Shown one piece after another: positions 7,582 to 30,732 of a stretch of 34,407 nucleotides of DNA. The notes below the pieces were generated by a model. That model was not told where the DNA came from, did no database searches, and saw only the letters and a program-made list of their open reading frames with translations. The translations under genes and the position numbers were made by a program. Location: positions 1-34,407 of IMG/VR virus record IMGVR_UViG_3300011339_000348. The stretch is one strand, 5' to 3'. Every line of letters begins with the position of its first letter. The first letter of the stretch is position 1. This DNA is from a virus (lineage: Duplodnaviria > Caudoviricetes).

Positions 7582-8037
7582 ATGGCAAGAGGAAGACCTA
7601 AAGGCAGTAAATCGTTATTAGAACGATTATTAGAACGAGTTATAATCAATGAAGTAACTGATTGTTGGGAATACCAAGGCGGTAAAAACAACATTGGTTA
7701 TGGAATGATACGTGACGAGAAGAAAATGCGAACGACACATCGTGTCAGTTATGAGGAACACAAAGGACCTATACCACCTGGTATGTGCGTTCTACACAAG
7801 TGTGATAATACAATCTGTTGTAATCCCAATCATTTATGGTTAGGCACACTCAAAGACAATACCCAAGATATGATGAGTAAAGGACGTGCTAAACCTTTTG
7901 GTGGGCATTTAGATACTGGTGGAATGAAAGGTAAGAAACAACCAACAACACTTTGCAAGTATTGTAATCGGTTAATGCCAAACAATAGTTATGCAAGATT
8001 TCACGGGGAAAAATGTAAATCTAAACAAATAGAATAA
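7582..8037 (+). CDS. HNH endonuclease (homing-endonuclease type)
   Basis: CWEYQG...GYG...THRVSY...VLHKCDNTICCNPNHLWLGTLKDNTQDM is a canonical HNH motif. N-terminal RGRPKGS and C-terminal CKYC...RFHGEKCK. Confidence 0.92.
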   Translation: MARGRPKGSKSLLERLLERVIINEVTDCWEYQGGKNNIGYGMIRDEKKMRTTHRVSYEEHKGPIPPGMCVLHKCDNTICCNPNHLWLGTLKDNTQDMMSKGRAKPFGGHLDTGGMKGKKQPTTLCKYCNRLMPNNSYARFHGEKCKSKQIE

Positions 8038-8403: not shown

Positions 8404-8432
8404 TTGACAAAGAATAAAGGTTATGTTATACT
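8404..8432 (+). promoter_or_regulatory. Sigma70-type early promoter
   Basis: TTGACA (8404-8409), 17-bp spacer, extended TG, TATACT (8427-8432); SD aaggaa and ATG 8461 follow. Confidence 0.85.
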
Positions 8433-9357: not shown

Positions 9358-9663
9358 ATGTATTCAATAGAAGAACTTACCGCACTCAGTGCTGCCACTG
9401 AAACAGAAAACTACGAAAAGAACTATGACTTCTGGTATGTCATAGACCACTTACCCATAGAGGATCTCATTCTCTGGGCAGAACGACTAACAAAAACAAA
9501 ATATCTAAGTAATCACAATGGTGAATATTGGCTAGACCTTATTGATTTAATCAGTATCGCTAAACAACCTATGACTATGATACTCACAAACAAACAAAAA
9601 CGCTATATGTGTATGTTAGTGATTAGTTGCTGGAATGATTTGGAGTGTGATTATGTGTTATGA
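9358..9663 (+). CDS. Hypothetical protein
   Basis: 101 aa ORF overlapping the start of the polymerase-like gene. Confidence 0.65.
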   Translation: MYSIEELTALSAATETENYEKNYDFWYVIDHLPIEDLILWAERLTKTKYLSNHNGEYWLDLIDLISIAKQPMTMILTNKQKRYMCMLVISCWNDLECDYVL

Positions 9664-10753
9664 ACCAAACTACAATGATCCTCGTGTAAGAAAACGCATT
9701 CGTAAAGCACTTGGATTCGTCGGGTCTTGTTTAAGTGAAACAGAACCACACGCCTGGTCAACTCGCTACATAGATAAGCACTTAGGTCATCAAAAAGAAA
9801 ATCTCAGTAAATATCTGAGGTTTAATCTATTATCTTGTGTAAGTGACAGATACAGCAAAGACACAGGTGTATGTAAGAAATACATCAAAAATAAAACGGG
9901 TTATGATTTGGTCAATAATCTACTGAATAACATAACTCAATACCCTAGTGTGTCGGAAGTCGGACTAATACAAGATTGGGTCAAAACAGAATACAAGAAC
10001 GAACTATCTACATTAGATTTCACCTATGATGATAAGTCACATAGATTGTGGCACCCATTACAGCGTGTAAAAAAGCAATATAAAAAAGAAGTTTTTACTG
10101 AAGTGGGTCTCAAATATCAATACGATATAGAATGTTGTGCTCCTACTCTTATACATCAGTTTAGTCAAAAGATACCCGAAATACTACAAGATAACAAATA
10201 CATACAAGGCCCTATGGATTTGTATCTATTCGCACTTAGAAGTTATCTTAAAGACCGTAAATCAATAAGAACTATGTTAGCAACTGAAGCCGAGATACCT
10301 GAGGGTCATATCAAAGTAATCATCAACGCATTACTTGCGGGTGCTCATTTAACTAATAACAAAGATAGCGATATCTATAAACTACTTGGTGGAGATAAGG
10401 CACGCATAGAATATCTTAAACAACACCCATATCTATTAGAACTACGTAGTGATATCAAGACCTGCTGGGATTACATCAAACAAGTATTACCTCGCAGGAG
10501 TGTCGTCAATAAGAACAATAAAACTCAAATGCTACCCATATCAAGTAAGCAAAAAGCAAATACATATTTTCAGTTAGAACGACTTGTATTAGAACAAGTA
10601 GTTGATTTTATGAAGCAATCAGGTGATATACAATATTTTCTGGAACACGACGGGTGGGTATGTAATAAACAACTCAATGAAGAACTACTGATTAAATGGA
10701 TAAAAGATAAAACGGGTTATGATATTCAACTGGATATGGTTGTTCTTGTATAA
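9653..10753 (+). CDS. Minimal family-A-polymerase-like protein (putative replication protein)
   Basis: Start re-called at ATG 9653 (SD ggag at 9642). Ordered motifs RLWHPLQ, YDIECCAP (A-like), KVIINALLAG (B-like), FQLE and LEHDGW (C-like). No exonuclease domains. Confidence 0.55.
   Translation: MCYEPNYNDPRVRKRIRKALGFVGSCLSETEPHAWSTRYIDKHLGHQKENLSKYLRFNLLSCVSDRYSKDTGVCKKYIKNKTGYDLVNNLLNNITQYPSVSEVGLIQDWVKTEYKNELSTLDFTYDDKSHRLWHPLQRVKKQYKKEVFTEVGLKYQYDIECCAPTLIHQFSQKIPEILQDNKYIQGPMDLYLFALRSYLKDRKSIRTMLATEAEIPEGHIKVIINALLAGAHLTNNKDSDIYKLLGGDKARIEYLKQHPYLLELRSDIKTCWDYIKQVLPRRSVVNKNNKTQMLPISSKQKANTYFQLERLVLEQVVDFMKQSGDIQYFLEHDGWVCNKQLNEELLIKWIKDKTGYDIQLDMVVLV
9927..9965 (+). repeat. 39-bp direct repeat, copy 1
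   Basis: ataacataactcaataccctagtgtgtcggaagtcggac; 37/39 identical to 10750-10788. Confidence 0.92.
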
Positions 10754-10788
10754 CATAACCTAATACCCTAGTGTGTCGGAAGTCGGAC
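10750..10788 (+). repeat. 39-bp direct repeat, copy 2 (partial third copy at about 10809-10826)
   Basis: ataacataacctaataccctagtgtgtcggaagtcggac at the stop codon; ccctctaagtgtgtcgga follows. Confidence 0.92.
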
Positions 10789-14435: not shown

Positions 14436-17400
14436 ATGGCATACAATAATAAACCAATAAGTCCGCAACAACTCGCAATGATGGGTCGTGATGGCGACAC
14501 AATGTTAGCACACATCAACGAAACTGAAGCAGAGATGTTAAAAAGAATGGGTGGTCGTGGCACCATCAATCCTATGACAGGCTTGCCAGAGTTTGCGTTC
14601 AGTGACGATTGGTGGAATGTTAGCCAAGACTATGGTAGTGGTGATTTTTATGATAACGATACCGGTGGCGGCCTTGGTGGTATAGATACTGGTGGCGGTG
14701 GTACTGTTGATACCGGAGGTGGTGGTGTAGTTGATACCGGAGGTGGTGGTGTAGTTGATACCGGCCCTATCATACCAGATAATACACCAATAGACACCGG
14801 TCCTAGTCAAGCAGATATATTAGCACAACAGCAAGCAGATGCATTAGCGGCACAACAAGCAAATGATGCGGCAGCCGCGGCACAACAAGCATATTGGCAA
14901 CAACAAGCAGACGCACAACAAGCAGAATGGCAACGTTTAGCAGATGAACGTGATGCAGCCGCACGTGCCGCTAATGAAGCATTATGGGCACAGCAAGCAA
15001 GAGATGCCCAAATAGCCGCAGACGCTGCCGCAAGTGTTATACCCGGCAACTCAACATTGATACAAGATTATGTTGGTAACACTGTGGGCAGTATAAACAA
15101 TGGAACAAATACAAACAGTATTACAGTGATCCCGGGTAGTGGCAATACAAACACAACAGTAACAGGTGCAGTCACGCCGGGTGAGATTACAACAGGTAAC
15201 ATCACAGATACAACAGGATTAGATACAGGTCCTGTCATTCCTACTGATACGATAACAGGTGGAACTGGAACAACAGTTGTAGATACAACTGGTGGCACAA
15301 CTGGATCAGTATCACCAACTGATTTAGTCAATAACGATTTTACAGATGGTGCTAATAGTGGTTACACGCAAGCACAATTAAACACAGTGGCAGACTTTGC
15401 TAATAAGATAGACCAAATCAATAGTCAGCCAGGAGTTCAAGTAGCGTTCGCCCCATTAGTATTGTTAGCAGATATCGTAGCGCACGGTATTGCAATAGCG
15501 TTGGCAGCATTATGGAATCCAACAAGTGGCTTAACAGACGAGCAGGCAAAAAATGCCGCGATTGCTACGGTTAAGTTATTGAATGATCCTAACATTGATA
15601 GAGATGCTTTCAATAAGGCTACTGGACAAAGTGTGTCTGATGATATGTTTAATCAACTTAAAATAGGCGCCGCTGATCCTGCATTAGAACAAGAAGTTGC
15701 TACAATCGTTATCACTGGAAAGCGTGATACTAATATTGTATTAGATGATAAAACACCCGTAGTAATAGGTGGCACATACACACCGCCAGGTGGAACTAAT
15801 GTTCCTGATGGTGGAGGAGGCAATACAGGTGCTACTGGTGCAGTCGCCGGAGCAAGTAGTGCTGTAGGAGCAAGTAGTGCTGTAGGTGCAAGTAGTGCTG
15901 TAGGTGCAAGTAGTGCTGTAGGTGCAAGTAGTGCGGCATCAAGCGATGATAGCCCGGGTGCATCTTACGCTAGAAACAATCAAGGTATGGATGCATACTA
16001 CGAAGCCATTAGAGCATTTATGGCAACTAACCCAAGCGCAGCCGCACTCGCTGAAGCAATGGGAACATATGGTGTAAGTCAAAAAGATATTGATGCGGCA
16101 TTGAAACTAACTACAGGAGCGAGTGGAGCAACTACAGCCGCAACCGGAGCAACTGGTGCAGCCAGTGGTGCTACTGGAGCCGCAACAGGTGCAACAAGTG
16201 GAGCATCAGGTGTAGTAGGTGCTACAGGAACAGAAGGAGCAACAGGTCCTACAGTTGGAGCAACCGGTGGAGCGACAAGTGCCGCAAGTGGTGCAACTTC
16301 AGCCGCATCTGGTGCCACAGGAGCCGCGTCGGGAGCAAGTGCAGCCAGTGGTGCAAGTGCCGCAAGTGGATCAACAGGTGCAGCCAGCGGTGCGACAGGA
16401 ACAGTTGGTGCTTCGGGCACGGTTGGTGCTTCGGGCACGGTTGGCGCAAGTGGAACAGTAGGGGCATCAGGAACAGTAGGTGCAAGTGGCACAGTTGGTG
16501 CAAGTGGAACAGTAGGTGCATCAGGAACAGTAGGTGCAAGTGGAACAGTAGGTGCATCAGGAACCGTGGGAGCATCCGGAAGTAGTGGAGCAAGTGGAGC
16601 ATCCGGAAGTAGTGGAGCAAGTGGTTCATCAGGTAGTTCGGGAGCATCAGGTAGCAGTGGAGCAAGTGGTTCATCAGGTGCATCAGGTAGTTCGGGAGCA
16701 TCAGGTAGCAGTGGAGCAAGTGGTTCATCAGGAGCATCAGGATCTAGCGGTGCTTCGGGTAGTTCAGGTGCTAGTGGATCGTCAGGAGCGTCTGGCTCAA
16801 GTGGTGCATCTGGTGCATCAGGATCACGTGGAGCATCAGGATCTAGTGGCGCTTCGGGTAGTTCGGGAGCATCAGCCGCAACCGGAGCAAGTGCGGCAAC
16901 AGGTGCATCAGCCGCTACTGGAGCAAGCGCGGCAACAGGTGCAAGTGCCGCAACAGGTGCAACAACATATACGCCAACGAACTTAGGTTACTTGAATCCT
17001 GGATTCATTAGACCTACACCGTTCTATAATACTAATGCACCAGAACAAAGTAAGTTCTTCTGGGGACAACACGCATTTCAGCCAGGACCTGTCTTTAATC
17101 CTACATTGTATAATACACAACCAGAAGCACCTAACACACCATATGGCATACAACAAATGGCTCGCCCATTAACAATGCAAGAAATCAATGATATGATATT
17201 GGGCAAGACAAGTAAAGCACAAACTGTTGCACCCGCGACACGTGCTGTTCCAATTACTGATTATAACCGTAATGTTATGAATACTGACTACAGCAAAGTT
17301 GGACAACTACCAGTCATAGCACCAGTAGCGCCAAGTCAAGTAGCACCAACAACATCAGTGTCACCTGTCAATGCTGAAATCGCAAGACAGTTAGGTAGTA

Positions 17401-17510
17401 ACTGGTTCAACAAACAACAAGCGGCAGCGGCAGCAGGTGATTGGGAAACATACTACGCAATACAACGACAAGTTGATGCTATTGTGAATCCAGCACAGAA
17501 CATATTCTAA
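14436..17510 (+). CDS. Large low-complexity virion protein with Gly-X-Y tract
   Basis: 1024 aa. N-terminal GRDGDTMLAHI...GTINPMTGLPEF motif, then DTGGG, GASSAV, GASGTV, GASGSS and GASAAT repeats. TAAATA at 14412-14417. Confidence 0.75.
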   Translation: MAYNNKPISPQQLAMMGRDGDTMLAHINETEAEMLKRMGGRGTINPMTGLPEFAFSDDWWNVSQDYGSGDFYDNDTGGGLGGIDTGGGGTVDTGGGGVVDTGGGGVVDTGPIIPDNTPIDTGPSQADILAQQQADALAAQQANDAAAAAQQAYWQQQADAQQAEWQRLADERDAAARAANEALWAQQARDAQIAADAAASVIPGNSTLIQDYVGNTVGSINNGTNTNSITVIPGSGNTNTTVTGAVTPGEITTGNITDTTGLDTGPVIPTDTITGGTGTTVVDTTGGTTGSVSPTDLVNNDFTDGANSGYTQAQLNTVADFANKIDQINSQPGVQVAFAPLVLLADIVAHGIAIALAALWNPTSGLTDEQAKNAAIATVKLLNDPNIDRDAFNKATGQSVSDDMFNQLKIGAADPALEQEVATIVITGKRDTNIVLDDKTPVVIGGTYTPPGGTNVPDGGGGNTGATGAVAGASSAVGASSAVGASSAVGASSAVGASSAASSDDSPGASYARNNQGMDAYYEAIRAFMATNPSAAALAEAMGTYGVSQKDIDAALKLTTGASGATTAATGATGAASGATGAATGATSGASGVVGATGTEGATGPTVGATGGATSAASGATSAASGATGAASGASAASGASAASGSTGAASGATGTVGASGTVGASGTVGASGTVGASGTVGASGTVGASGTVGASGTVGASGTVGASGTVGASGSSGASGASGSSGASGSSGSSGASGSSGASGSSGASGSSGASGSSGASGSSGASGSSGASGSSGASGSSGASGSSGASGASGSRGASGSSGASGSSGASAATGASAATGASAATGASAATGASAATGATTYTPTNLGYLNPGFIRPTPFYNTNAPEQSKFFWGQHAFQPGPVFNPTLYNTQPEAPNTPYGIQQMARPLTMQEINDMILGKTSKAQTVAPATRAVPITDYNRNVMNTDYSKVGQLPVIAPVAPSQVAPTTSVSPVNAEIARQLGSNWFNKQQAAAAAGDWETYYAIQRQVDAIVNPAQNIF
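15849..16965 (+). repeat. Coding 18-bp (hexapeptide) tandem repeat arrays
   Basis: (GASSAV)n near 15849-15935; (GASGTV)n, (GASGSS)n and (GASAAT)n near 16390-16960, with synonymous variation between units. Confidence 0.9.
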
Positions 17511-21630: not shown

Positions 21631-22062
21631 ATGACTACACAAGAACAACTAACACAAACCTTCAACAATAACTTTGTTGCTTATTATCGTGCTCACGTGG
21701 CACATATAAACATTATGGGTAGAAACTTTCGCAGTGACCACAAGTTACTTGAAGGTGTCTATACAAGACGACAAGACCAGATTGATGTTCTTGGAGAACT
21801 ACTACGCACATTAGATGATTATATGCCTTGTGAGATACAAGATGTATTAAATCAAAGTGAAATATCAACAGCAATCTTTGAAGAAGATGCGGATGGATTT
21901 TTAGAAGGAGTAAGAGATGATTTGGAACTACTTAAAGGAACATACGAAGAACTTATGGCTATTGCTGAAGACGAAGGTCACAAAGAAATAGCCAATTACG
22001 CTCAGGATCAAATATTAGATTTAGCAAAGAGTATTTGGATGCTAAACTCTACACTTAGTTAA
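21631..22062 (+). CDS. dps: Dps/ferritin-like protein
   Basis: HINIMGRNFRSDHKLLEGVY...IDVLGELLR and C-terminal IWML match the Dps pattern. A variant TAAGTA (21620-21625) lies 5 nt before the ATG. Confidence 0.85.
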   Translation: MTTQEQLTQTFNNNFVAYYRAHVAHINIMGRNFRSDHKLLEGVYTRRQDQIDVLGELLRTLDDYMPCEIQDVLNQSEISTAIFEEDADGFLEGVRDDLELLKGTYEELMAIAEDEGHKEIANYAQDQILDLAKSIWMLNSTLS

Positions 22063-22692: not shown

Positions 22693-23814
22693 ATGAGATT
22701 TCATATATTGGGCTTGCCCCACACAGTAACAAGTAAAGAATATGTCGCTTGCGCTTACACACAAAAAGTGTGGAAGTTTGGTAAGATGATGAAAAAGTTA
22801 GGGCACGAAATAATACATTATGGTCACGCTGATAGTGATGTGATTTGTGATGAACACGTTACCGTTATTGACAACGGTGATTTACAAAAAGCATATGGTT
22901 CATACGACTGGCGTAAAAACTTCTTTAAGTTTGACAACAACGACCACGCTTACACTACATTTTTCTCTAACGCTATAAGAGAAGTAGGCAAAAGAAAACA
23001 AAAAAACGATTTTATACTACCATTCTGGGGATCAGGAGTAAAACCTATCTGTGATGCTCATACAGATATGATATGTGTAGAGCCAGGCATTGGATATGCT
23101 GGTGGTCATTTCGCAAAATGGAAGATATTTGAAAGTTATGCTATCTATCACGCCTATTGTGGCTTACAAAATGTAGGTAGTTGTAATCAAGGATGGTATG
23201 ATGTTGTTATTCCAAACTATTTTGACCCAGATGATTTTACATACAAAGATGTAAAGCAAGATTACTTCTTATTCTTGGGTAGAGTGTATGAAGGTAAGGG
23301 TATTCATATCGTCAATCAAATAGCAGAGAAGTTACCACATATCAATGTTGTTGTTGCAGGACAGAATCCAGACAATATCAAGTTTCCTGACAACGTATTG
23401 TTTGCTGGTTATGCTGATACAGAGACACGCAGAGAACTAATGGCTAATGCTAAGGGTGCGTTCGTTCCCAGTCAGTATGTAGAGCCATTTGGTGGCGTTC
23501 AAATAGAACTATTGATGAGTGGCACACCTACAATCACAACAGATTGGGGAAGTTTCGCAGAGAACAACATTCACGGAGTCACTGGATATCGTTGTAGAAC
23601 ATTTGAGCAATTCTTATGGGCTACAGAGAACATAGAAAATATTAAACCAAAAGATTGTAGAACTTGGGCAGAGAACTACACATTAGACAAAGTAGCCCCA
23701 ATGTATGAGGAATACTTTCAAAGCATATTAAACATACATACAGGCAATGGATGGTATGAGCCTAATGATAAAAGAACCAATTTAGATTGGTTAAAGAAAG
23801 ATTATCCTAAATAA
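22693..23814 (+). CDS. Glycosyltransferase (GT-B, family 4-like)
   Basis: VIPNYFD, YFLFLGRV..GKG and EPFGGVQIE (ExFG-x4-E) followed by SGTPTITTDWG...G.TG. Confidence 0.92.
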   Translation: MRFHILGLPHTVTSKEYVACAYTQKVWKFGKMMKKLGHEIIHYGHADSDVICDEHVTVIDNGDLQKAYGSYDWRKNFFKFDNNDHAYTTFFSNAIREVGKRKQKNDFILPFWGSGVKPICDAHTDMICVEPGIGYAGGHFAKWKIFESYAIYHAYCGLQNVGSCNQGWYDVVIPNYFDPDDFTYKDVKQDYFLFLGRVYEGKGIHIVNQIAEKLPHINVVVAGQNPDNIKFPDNVLFAGYADTETRRELMANAKGAFVPSQYVEPFGGVQIELLMSGTPTITTDWGSFAENNIHGVTGYRCRTFEQFLWATENIENIKPKDCRTWAENYTLDKVAPMYEEYFQSILNIHTGNGWYEPNDKRTNLDWLKKDYPK

Positions 23815-29523: not shown

Positions 29524-30732
29524 ATGAATTGGAAAGTAATAAATGGTAACAGTGCCGAAATACTGAAAACATACCCAGACAATAGTTTTGACTGCGTAGT
29601 CACAGACCCACCATATGGTATCAACTTCTTAGGTAAGAGTTGGGATAATAATACAGGTGATCGTGAAGTGTATGAACAATGTTTAAGAGTGTTAAAGCCA
29701 GGTGGTCATCTACTTGCGTTTAGTGCGGCACGAACATATCATCATCTTGCTATGACTGTTGAGACAGTTGGCTTTGAGATTAGAGACCAGATTATGTGGA
29801 TCTATGGTAGTGGCTTCCCTAAATCGCAAGATGTTGGAAGACAGATTGATAAGTCACAAAATAAGGGTAAATTTATTGGAACTGGTGCTACACAAATGAG
29901 TGGTGGACCAAAAGAATTTCCTGATGGAGCACTGCCTCGTAGTGAGAAGATGATACACGAACCAGAAACAGATGAAGCAAAACAATGGAGTGGTTGGGGC
30001 ACACAACTAAAACCCGCACACGAACCAATCGTTATGGCACGAAAGCCTGTTATTGGTAGTATTAGACTGAACGTGTTAGAGTATGGCACTGGAGCAATCA
30101 ATATTGATGCTACTCGTGTTAGTGGTGAGGCAAGAACTATCCCTGTACCATCTAATACTGAACGAAATGATAATACAATGTTTGGATTAAATCCAATGAT
30201 TACGCACGAACGAGTTGAAACTACTATTGGTCGCTTCCCATCAAATGTAATATTAGACAGTGAAGCAGGACAGATATTAGATGAGCAAGCACCTAAAGTT
30301 GGTAATCTATTCAGTGGTAAAAGAACCAAGTCATCAACTACTGGATCAGGTCATAGTTTAGTAAAAGAAAAACACGAAGGTGAAGACAATGGCGTGTTTG
30401 ACGGATTAGGTGGTGCAAGTCGTTTCTTCTATTGCGCTAAAGTCAGTGGTAAAGAACGACATATTGGTATAGCAGAAAACAATCACCCAACAGTGAAGCC
30501 AATAGAACTAATGAAGTATCTTATCAAGTTAGTCACACCACCAAATGGTCACATATTAGATCCGTTCAATGGTAGTGGCTCAACAGGATGTGCGGCAGTA
30601 GAACTTGGCTTTGACTATACTGGCATAGAGTTAGACCCTAACTATGTTGAGATAGCAACTAAGCGTATTAGTCATTGGGAGCAAGAGTGTAAGCCCAAGA
30701 CTACATATAATAATCTGTTTGAGGAAAAATAA
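29524..30732 (+). CDS. DNA methyltransferase, N6-adenine/N4-cytosine, beta class
   Basis: N-terminal VTDPPYG; HPTVKP and C-terminal LDPFNGSGSTG. Confidence 0.95.
   Translation: MNWKVINGNSAEILKTYPDNSFDCVVTDPPYGINFLGKSWDNNTGDREVYEQCLRVLKPGGHLLAFSAARTYHHLAMTVETVGFEIRDQIMWIYGSGFPKSQDVGRQIDKSQNKGKFIGTGATQMSGGPKEFPDGALPRSEKMIHEPETDEAKQWSGWGTQLKPAHEPIVMARKPVIGSIRLNVLEYGTGAINIDATRVSGEARTIPVPSNTERNDNTMFGLNPMITHERVETTIGRFPSNVILDSEAGQILDEQAPKVGNLFSGKRTKSSTTGSGHSLVKEKHEGEDNGVFDGLGGASRFFYCAKVSGKERHIGIAENNHPTVKPIELMKYLIKLVTPPNGHILDPFNGSGSTGCAAVELGFDYTGIELDPNYVEIATKRISHWEQECKPKTTYNNLFEEK

Follow-up and report, generated by a model that had tools for sequence, protein, structure and literature searches.

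A minimal family A polymerase with a duplicated site in and beside its gene is a candidate single-chain initiator-primase of a circular phage

A 366-aa protein encoded in a circular phage genome belongs, by its predicted structure, to the family A polymerase superfamily and is reduced to a minimal core. Its gene is tied to a ~43-bp site, which in the sequences searched was not found paired without the gene. We suggest that the protein is probably a single-chain, origin-binding initiator-primase whose primer would be taken over by a replisome of the host or a helper. Its role may be accessory, not essential.

Genome setting and features

The window, the whole stretch of 34,407 nucleotides that was analyzed, is a circular and complete phage genome (its ends overlap by 191 nt) and encodes a capsid and portal of SU10-type plus a terminase. 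The polymerase gene sits in a short early block. Its open reading frame, 9653–10753 on the plus strand, encodes 366 aa, as an earlier sequence-only reading had it; an alternative in-frame ATG at 9635 would give 372 aa, and GGAG directly precedes the start at 9653. The features needed below are as follows.

8404..8432, plus strand: near-consensus sigma-70 promoter ahead of the block that holds the polymerase gene, 11 of 12 positions matching (consensus match only)
9653..10753, plus strand: gene for the 366-aa protein, winged-helix-like domain plus minimal family A (TV-Pol-like) polymerase (open reading frame, fold, conserved residues)
9653..9937, plus strand: basic domain, residues 1–95, helix-strand-helix-helix-hairpin-helix (winged-helix-like), predicted site reader (predicted topology, weak fold matches)
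9878..9907, plus strand: 30-nt likeness (87%) to 10694–10723, shortly to the left of each site; probably an old conversion tract of greater length (sequence comparison)
9918..9961, no strand assigned: in-gene site copy with G-poor A/C strip, CCC at 9943–9945 and TA[G/T]TGT box, linker-coding (peptide YPSVSEV); predicted origin or priming site (repeat, family-wide element)
9989..10750, plus strand: polymerase core, residues 113–366, with R131 on a hairpin (10043), D158 (10124), Ala163 at the gate, R206, K221 and G230 without Tyr, E309, and H332-D333
10741..10784, no strand assigned: downstream site copy (CCC at 10766–10768), oriented as the first and 823 bp apart from it (repeat, family-wide element)

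No other replication gene was recognized among 25 window ORFs compared with PHROGs, 14 of these also with Pfam. An Rfam search of the window gave no match, and GC skew is approximately monotonic across it and gives no origin position. Near-identical DNA was found in metagenome runs from rivers and in others that carry a coded label; none of the listed runs with such DNA is an RNA dataset. Elsewhere the window holds genes for an HNH endonuclease, a ferritin/Dps-like protein, a glycosyltransferase, and a DNA methylase (7582–8037, 21631–22062, 22693–23814, and 29524–30732, respectively) and for a 1024-aa low-complexity protein with long GAS/GAT repeat arrays (14436–17510).

A minimal polymerase core

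The predicted structure is confident (pLDDT 92.9) and comprises two domains joined by a loose linker (residues 91–100; pLDDT 62). Residues ~110–366 match family A polymerases, with the best Foldseek hits to T7 DNA polymerase (E 2.5e-5). In VIA-align, the model superimposes on Pol nu (Z 11.9, rmsd 3.7, 219 aligned), Klenow (Z 11.8), and T7 RNAP (Z 9.2, rmsd 4.3, 218 aligned). Among viral models, Foldseek matched virophage primase-helicases (E 1.9e-6 and 3.6e-5; Qinghai Lake virophage and Zamilon). The palm of family A type that had been proposed from sequence motifs is thus present in the predicted fold. The model aligns only to the polymerase core; it has no 3'-5' exonuclease and little or no thumb.

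Conservation was scored across 267 proteins (the 120 best word-search homologues minus one query duplicate, 147 further profile-search representatives, and the query). Seven residues, R131, D158, R206, K221, E309, H332, and D333, are each kept in 265–267 of them (R131 in 266, R206 and K221 in 267, E309 in 265). Both Asp residues previously put forward are among these: D158, with its codon at 10124, is kept in 266 of 267 homologues and D333 in 265 of 267, the misses being gaps. H332-D333 is encoded at 10646–10651 and the full EHDG at 10643–10654. R131 lies on a predicted beta-hairpin ahead of the palm; at the place of the bi-helical thumb of TV-Pols, the hairpin is preceded only by helices 98–113 and 115–120.

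The motif-B-like KVIINALLAG keeps K221 and G230 at motif-B spacing, with Ala229 at the usual place of Tyr. The absence of Tyr from this segment had been remarked on before, and it extends to the family, in which Tyr is outside the five commonest residues at 229. Arg is outside the five commonest residues four positions before K221; the invariant R206 is 15 earlier, and RxxxK is also absent from the plasmid proteins and Ma-LMM01 gp030 discussed below. Because motif-B Arg and Tyr are outside the commonest residues at their positions, catalysis may be slow.

Mapped by motif spacing, the ribose-gate position (motif A D+5) is Ala in 252 of 267 proteins and Glu in 2, and the F762-like position is Asn or Thr in 254 of 267, with Ala, Cys, or Met at the Y766-like position. 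These are the positions that we take, from motif spacing and with Pol I numbering, to be the counterparts of E710, F762, and Y766. E710 and F762 are described as the ribose filters of Pol I in the available parts of two sources (PMC7581432, PMC13369328). Replacement of the ribose-gate Glu by Ala, together with the missing O-helix aromatics, makes RNA priming plausible.

Homologues and a link to TV-Pols

Word searches returned 550 homologues and profile searches 1170 clusters (50% identity) at E <= 0.001, or 423 at 1e-30. The protein has no match in Pfam, PHROGs, NCBIfam, PDB sequences, or cultured phages, and no family model or name; the Atlas matches are unnamed clusters, and a DNA_pol_A cluster appears there only at 0.77. 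No fused form occurs among proteins of 819–2335 aa, lengths of 642–818 lying outside the word searches, which is consistent with the earlier description of a stand-alone protein. Products with the N-terminal domain only were also searched for, yielding one 128-aa protein on a 510-bp contig, apparently a frameshift. Individual members vary: P0198 has a C-terminal GIY-YIG-like extension (weak NCBIfam match), P0142 a long linker insertion that is endonuclease-like by eye, and at L026:372-1568 the gene is present as two ORFs.

The TV-Pol (Transposon-Virus polymerase) family was described by Iyer, Abhiman, and Aravind in 2008, who predicted its members to be primases (PMC2579912). P0001 matches two plasmid proteins (Polaromonas) at E 1e-3 (profile score 51 bits), one of which matches Ma-LMM01 gp030 at E 6e-5. 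The direct profile score on Ma-LMM01 gp030 is only 4.4 bits, the best of 200 shuffles reaching 0.7. Judging from the phage name and the transposase neighbours, Ma-LMM01 gp030 is apparently the member listed in the TV-Pol paper. Since the two plasmid proteins provide stepwise links to gp030, the polymerase is best treated as a divergent TV-Pol-like branch. A role of the Polaromonas homologues as the Rep of those plasmids finds no support, as each plasmid has a separate RepA.

Some homologues have a different setting. Four on chromosomal contigs (L059–L062; Caballeronia, Janthinobacterium, Duganella, and Steroidobacteraceae) adjoin integrase-family genes, and in L060 the gene lies between two site copies of opposite orientation. 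No integrase, resolvase, or transposase neighbourhood was found in the window phage.

A site tied to the gene

A 39-bp repeat occurs at 9927–9965 and 10750–10788 (37 of 39 identical). It is part of a family-wide element of ~43 bp, extending from about −25 to +18 around CCC and found at the same two places in relatives. Among 87 non-redundant loci (<90% identical, from 123 complete loci), a matrix trained on the same loci that it scores found a direct pair in 42, an inverted pair in 3, only the downstream copy in 14, only the in-gene copy in 5, and neither in 23. Several of these 23 carry upstream copies or divergent pairs. Loci with the site have one to four copies, and tandem extra copies occur in 5 of 87. 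Individual loci depart further: L027 has four copies, two per strand, the first copy of L018 is upstream of the gene, and in L032, L033, and L122 the downstream copy is inverted yet shares a genome-specific flank.

Away from the gene, only 8 site matches occur in 896 kb. Among 20 near-complete relatives of the window phage, the 19 without the gene have 3 marginal single matches, and the one with the gene has a proper pair. IMG/VR contigs with two exact matches contain the gene in 16 of 16 cases, and stretches with a single match contain it in 8 of 40.

Two reading frames run through the in-gene copy (47 and 4), and its Pro is CCT in 38 of 38 cases, so the constraint on the site is at the DNA level. 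To the left of CCC is a strip with 5–6% G compared with 16–24% in the flanks, and 76% A+T compared with 61%. At positions where genomes differ from one another, the two copies within a genome agree (position 5, 1.00 vs. 0.50; positions 10–13, ~0.9 vs. 0.3–0.5). In 34 of 45 pairs a copy is matched strictly best by its partner in the same genome; with the left strip considered by itself, the count is 22 of 45. Because copies agree where genomes differ, sequence is being copied between the sites of a genome.

Two other accounts of the repeat were considered. Target-site duplication of a polymerase cassette is rejected, as copies are also inverted, upstream, or up to four per locus. As for excision or inversion of the segment between the repeats, contigs from 4 of the 20 listed runs show no such joint and contigs from 3 span both copies, though contigs drop rare forms.

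The N-terminal domain is the predicted reader of the site. That it is separate and basic, as had been noted, is borne out by 17 K+R against 9 D+E, a pI of 9.5, and its place before the low-confidence linker. Its topology fits a winged helix; matches to PadR, MarR, and RTP are weak (Z 3.4–4.5) and below those to unrelated helical proteins at 5.5, and Foldseek gave no match to the domain at E <= 0.001. Variation at the site's variable positions, those of the box, follows the identity of the N-terminal domain (partial rho 0.31; 0 of 500 permutations) rather than that of the polymerase (−0.07), a correlation equally expected from linkage and drawn from related rows. Trp67 accompanies T at site position 5 in 10 of 10 cases, and F306R accompanies an ATA start in 6 of 6, all from one clade in a quick tree.

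A polymerase with its own site could also be a miniature T7-like RNA polymerase, for which the site is the promoter of a short regulatory or antisense RNA rather than of a replication primer. The missing ribose gate, the structural neighbourhood of T7 RNAP noted above, and the direction of both copies, which point antisense into the gene, agree with this, as does the order of box and then GGG on the minus strand, which resembles the promoter geometry of phage single-subunit enzymes. However, all of the few sites lie within a few hundred bases of the gene and none before operons, their orientation varies to include inverted and upstream copies, and primase-helicase pairs take the place of the protein in relatives. 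We regard a promoter function as improbable.

Exchange with primases in relatives

Relatives of the window phage were drawn from 80 loci whose capsid proteins are at least 80% identical (551 found), the 34 used being among the longest records; 3 of these have the gene. Twenty of these relatives are at least 90% complete, and only one of the 20 has the polymerase gene. In 13 of 20, the interval between the tail/lysis block and a virion gene is occupied by an AEP prim-pol and a helicase (2 prim-pols and 5 helicases were scanned and the rest assigned by cluster; one prim-pol is cut by a contig end). The interval has a different TV-Pol-like protein in 1 of 20, this 366-aa family in 1 of 20, and nothing recognized in 5 of 20. 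The different TV-Pol-like protein has 603 aa, lacks a helicase in the slot (L303:15455-17266, genome G002), and has relatives in a Desulfovibrio phage. Displacement of prim-pols is the argument that was used for calling TV-Pols primases (PMC2579912).

The five relatives without a recognizable replication gene in the slot are G003, G004, G010, G014, and G016 (L305, L308, L319, L327, and L332), two of which have terminal repeats. They suggest that the slot may be optional or accessory. The earlier view of the gene as the sole replication candidate therefore stands for this genome but not as proof that the gene is essential. Conversely, a search of 1402 ORFs in flanks of varying length around the gene, from 87 loci, yielded no homologue of a prim-pol or helicase.

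These patterns bear on how much of replication the protein performs. As a whole replicase, it would prime at the site and then copy the genome itself by strand displacement. In favor of this, it is the only replication gene recognized in a complete circular genome, TV-Pols have been proposed as primase-polymerases (PMC2579912), and in relatives with a prim-pol and helicase the scanned clusters include no other polymerase. But the protein has no exonuclease, helicase, or ribose gate and little or no thumb, and most direct pairs share one orientation, so that only one strand would be copied. A complete replicase is decidedly unlikely.

At the other extreme, the protein could bind the origin and only extend a primer or nick supplied by the host or a helper phage, with no de novo start, or fill gaps at the site. 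CCPol alone extends primers and cannot prime, according to the available part of PMC7581432, and no recurring single-strand-binding partner was recognized beside the phage gene. Against extension alone, 13 relatives have a primase in the same slot, a missing ribose gate is more in keeping with a primase, and a sharply bounded strip of ~25 nt by the box suggests a defined product. We consider this alternative unlikely.

The polymerase is not needed to read TAAATA

The polymerase had also been proposed, as an alternative, to be the enzyme that reads TAAATA. The motif is strand-biased in the window (23 vs. 5), mostly before late genes, with plus-strand sites spanning 1921–33307, and among 55 longer loci that carry the gene, 27 have it before one-fifth or more of their ORFs. 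Yet the bias is kept in all 20 near-complete relatives (11–37 on the coding strand vs. 1–12, with 1-kb overlaps counted twice and the last 471 bases of one record left out), 19 of which lack the gene, and the polymerase is thus not needed to read TAAATA. In addition, chromosomal integrase-linked copies show little TAAATA before ORFs (1 of 23 in L059, 0 of 33 in L062), and the polymerase has its own, different site. A late-promoter function is therefore highly improbable, and replication priming is separated from TAAATA transcription in these phages. No sigma factor was recognized in the window despite T4-late-like TAAATA boxes before most virion genes; boxes without a recognized sigma factor fit a helper-phage model.

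Proposed mechanism

An initiator-primase is the reading best supported by the fold, the in-place exchange with prim-pol and helicase, and the gene-tied site, and a primase-like initiator or origin-binding Rep was among the earlier suggestions. We propose that the N-terminal domain binds the TA[G/T]TGT box and that the adjacent A+T-rich strip opens. The polymerase domain would then start de novo at CCC and proceed to the left, antisense to the gene, copying the G-poor strip of ~25 nt and yielding a G-started primer that is more likely RNA than DNA. The site's asymmetry and the lack of a ribose gate are what suggest this direction and product. A polymerase and helicase of the host or a co-infecting phage would extend the primer; we assign extension to host or helper enzymes because the phage has no replicative polymerase partner or helicase of its own. 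The in-gene copy would keep reader and site together during phage recombination, and the second copy may be a second priming or regulatory site. Several findings weigh against an initiator-primase. The polymerase has no ATPase for opening the origin though it takes the place of primase and helicase together, and by the matrix both canonical copies are missing from 23 of 87 loci. The fold matches of the N-terminal domain are weak, five of 20 relatives lack a recognizable replication gene, and CCPol, the analogue that has been tested, needs a partner and uses dNTPs.

More tentatively, a lone family A enzyme may read a promoter-like origin, melt it, and lay a G-started RNA primer of ~25 nt as an R-loop for a borrowed replisome. 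If true, this would be the smallest initiator with sequence specificity in the Pol I/T7 RNAP superfamily, and it would serve as a living model of the primase from which T7-type RNA polymerases have been proposed to descend. Transfer of nascent strands between the two sites would also account for the lasting likeness of the copies, inverted ones included.

Comparison with known systems

Initiators with parts of this arrangement are known. ColE2-type Rep and RSF1010 RepB' are origin-specific primases with an AEP fold, and ColE2 Rep binds its origin and primes for another polymerase. In phage lambda, the origin lies inside the gene of the initiator O, between its domains, and O has no catalytic domain. 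Unlike all three, the phage protein uses a family A palm. With T7-type single-subunit RNA polymerases it shares the superfamily fold, a small motif-A gate residue, and a predicted de novo start beside a bound site. However, it is well under half their size and lacks the motif-B Tyr, and a distribution of one to four sites near its own gene is not that of a transcription enzyme.

The closest relatives are TV-Pols, which the protein resembles in its minimal family A core, hairpin Arg, two Asp residues, HTH fingers, and lack of a nuclease. The likeness extends to a setting in mobile elements and small viruses, displacement of prim-pols, structural matches to virophage members, and the stepwise sequence link to Ma-LMM01 gp030. 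It differs in length (366 aa vs. 400–600 in TV-Pols), in its reduced thumb and lack of a literal RxxxK, and in having no D5 helicase fused or adjacent. Its N-terminal domain is alpha/beta and winged-helix-like whereas TV-PolN is predicted to be all-helical, and a conserved duplicated cognate site inside the gene is absent from the main text of PMC2579912.

In the CCPol-MP primase of SCCmec, a family A domain likewise does the priming and starts by preference at the origin of the element, beside replication genes, as far as described in the available parts of PMC7581432 and 10.1101/2022.12.02.518924. According to the same parts, priming by CCPol uses dNTPs and depends on a partner protein. CCPol retains E710 and F762, its primers are DNA, and it requires an OB-fold partner as well as a helicase, whereas the phage polymerase has no gate, carries an extra fused domain, and has no partner or helicase that we could see.

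In the literature searched, with subscription papers mostly beyond its scope, we found nothing on the 366-aa family or the ~43-bp site, nor, in the available text (including that of PMC11348598), a single chain that lacks a helicase and combines a fused reader with a duplicated site in its gene. The kind of enzyme is already known, as TV-Pol or PolA-type primase; this locus adds the site with its controls and the displacement of prim-pol and helicase. From the parts of the sources available, CCPol is the one TV-Pol-type member found to have been tested, and it needs a partner and a helicase. The 43-bp site is a defined candidate substrate, with natural variants, for one small protein, and it thereby becomes testable whether a family A core can initiate alone and with which nucleotides.
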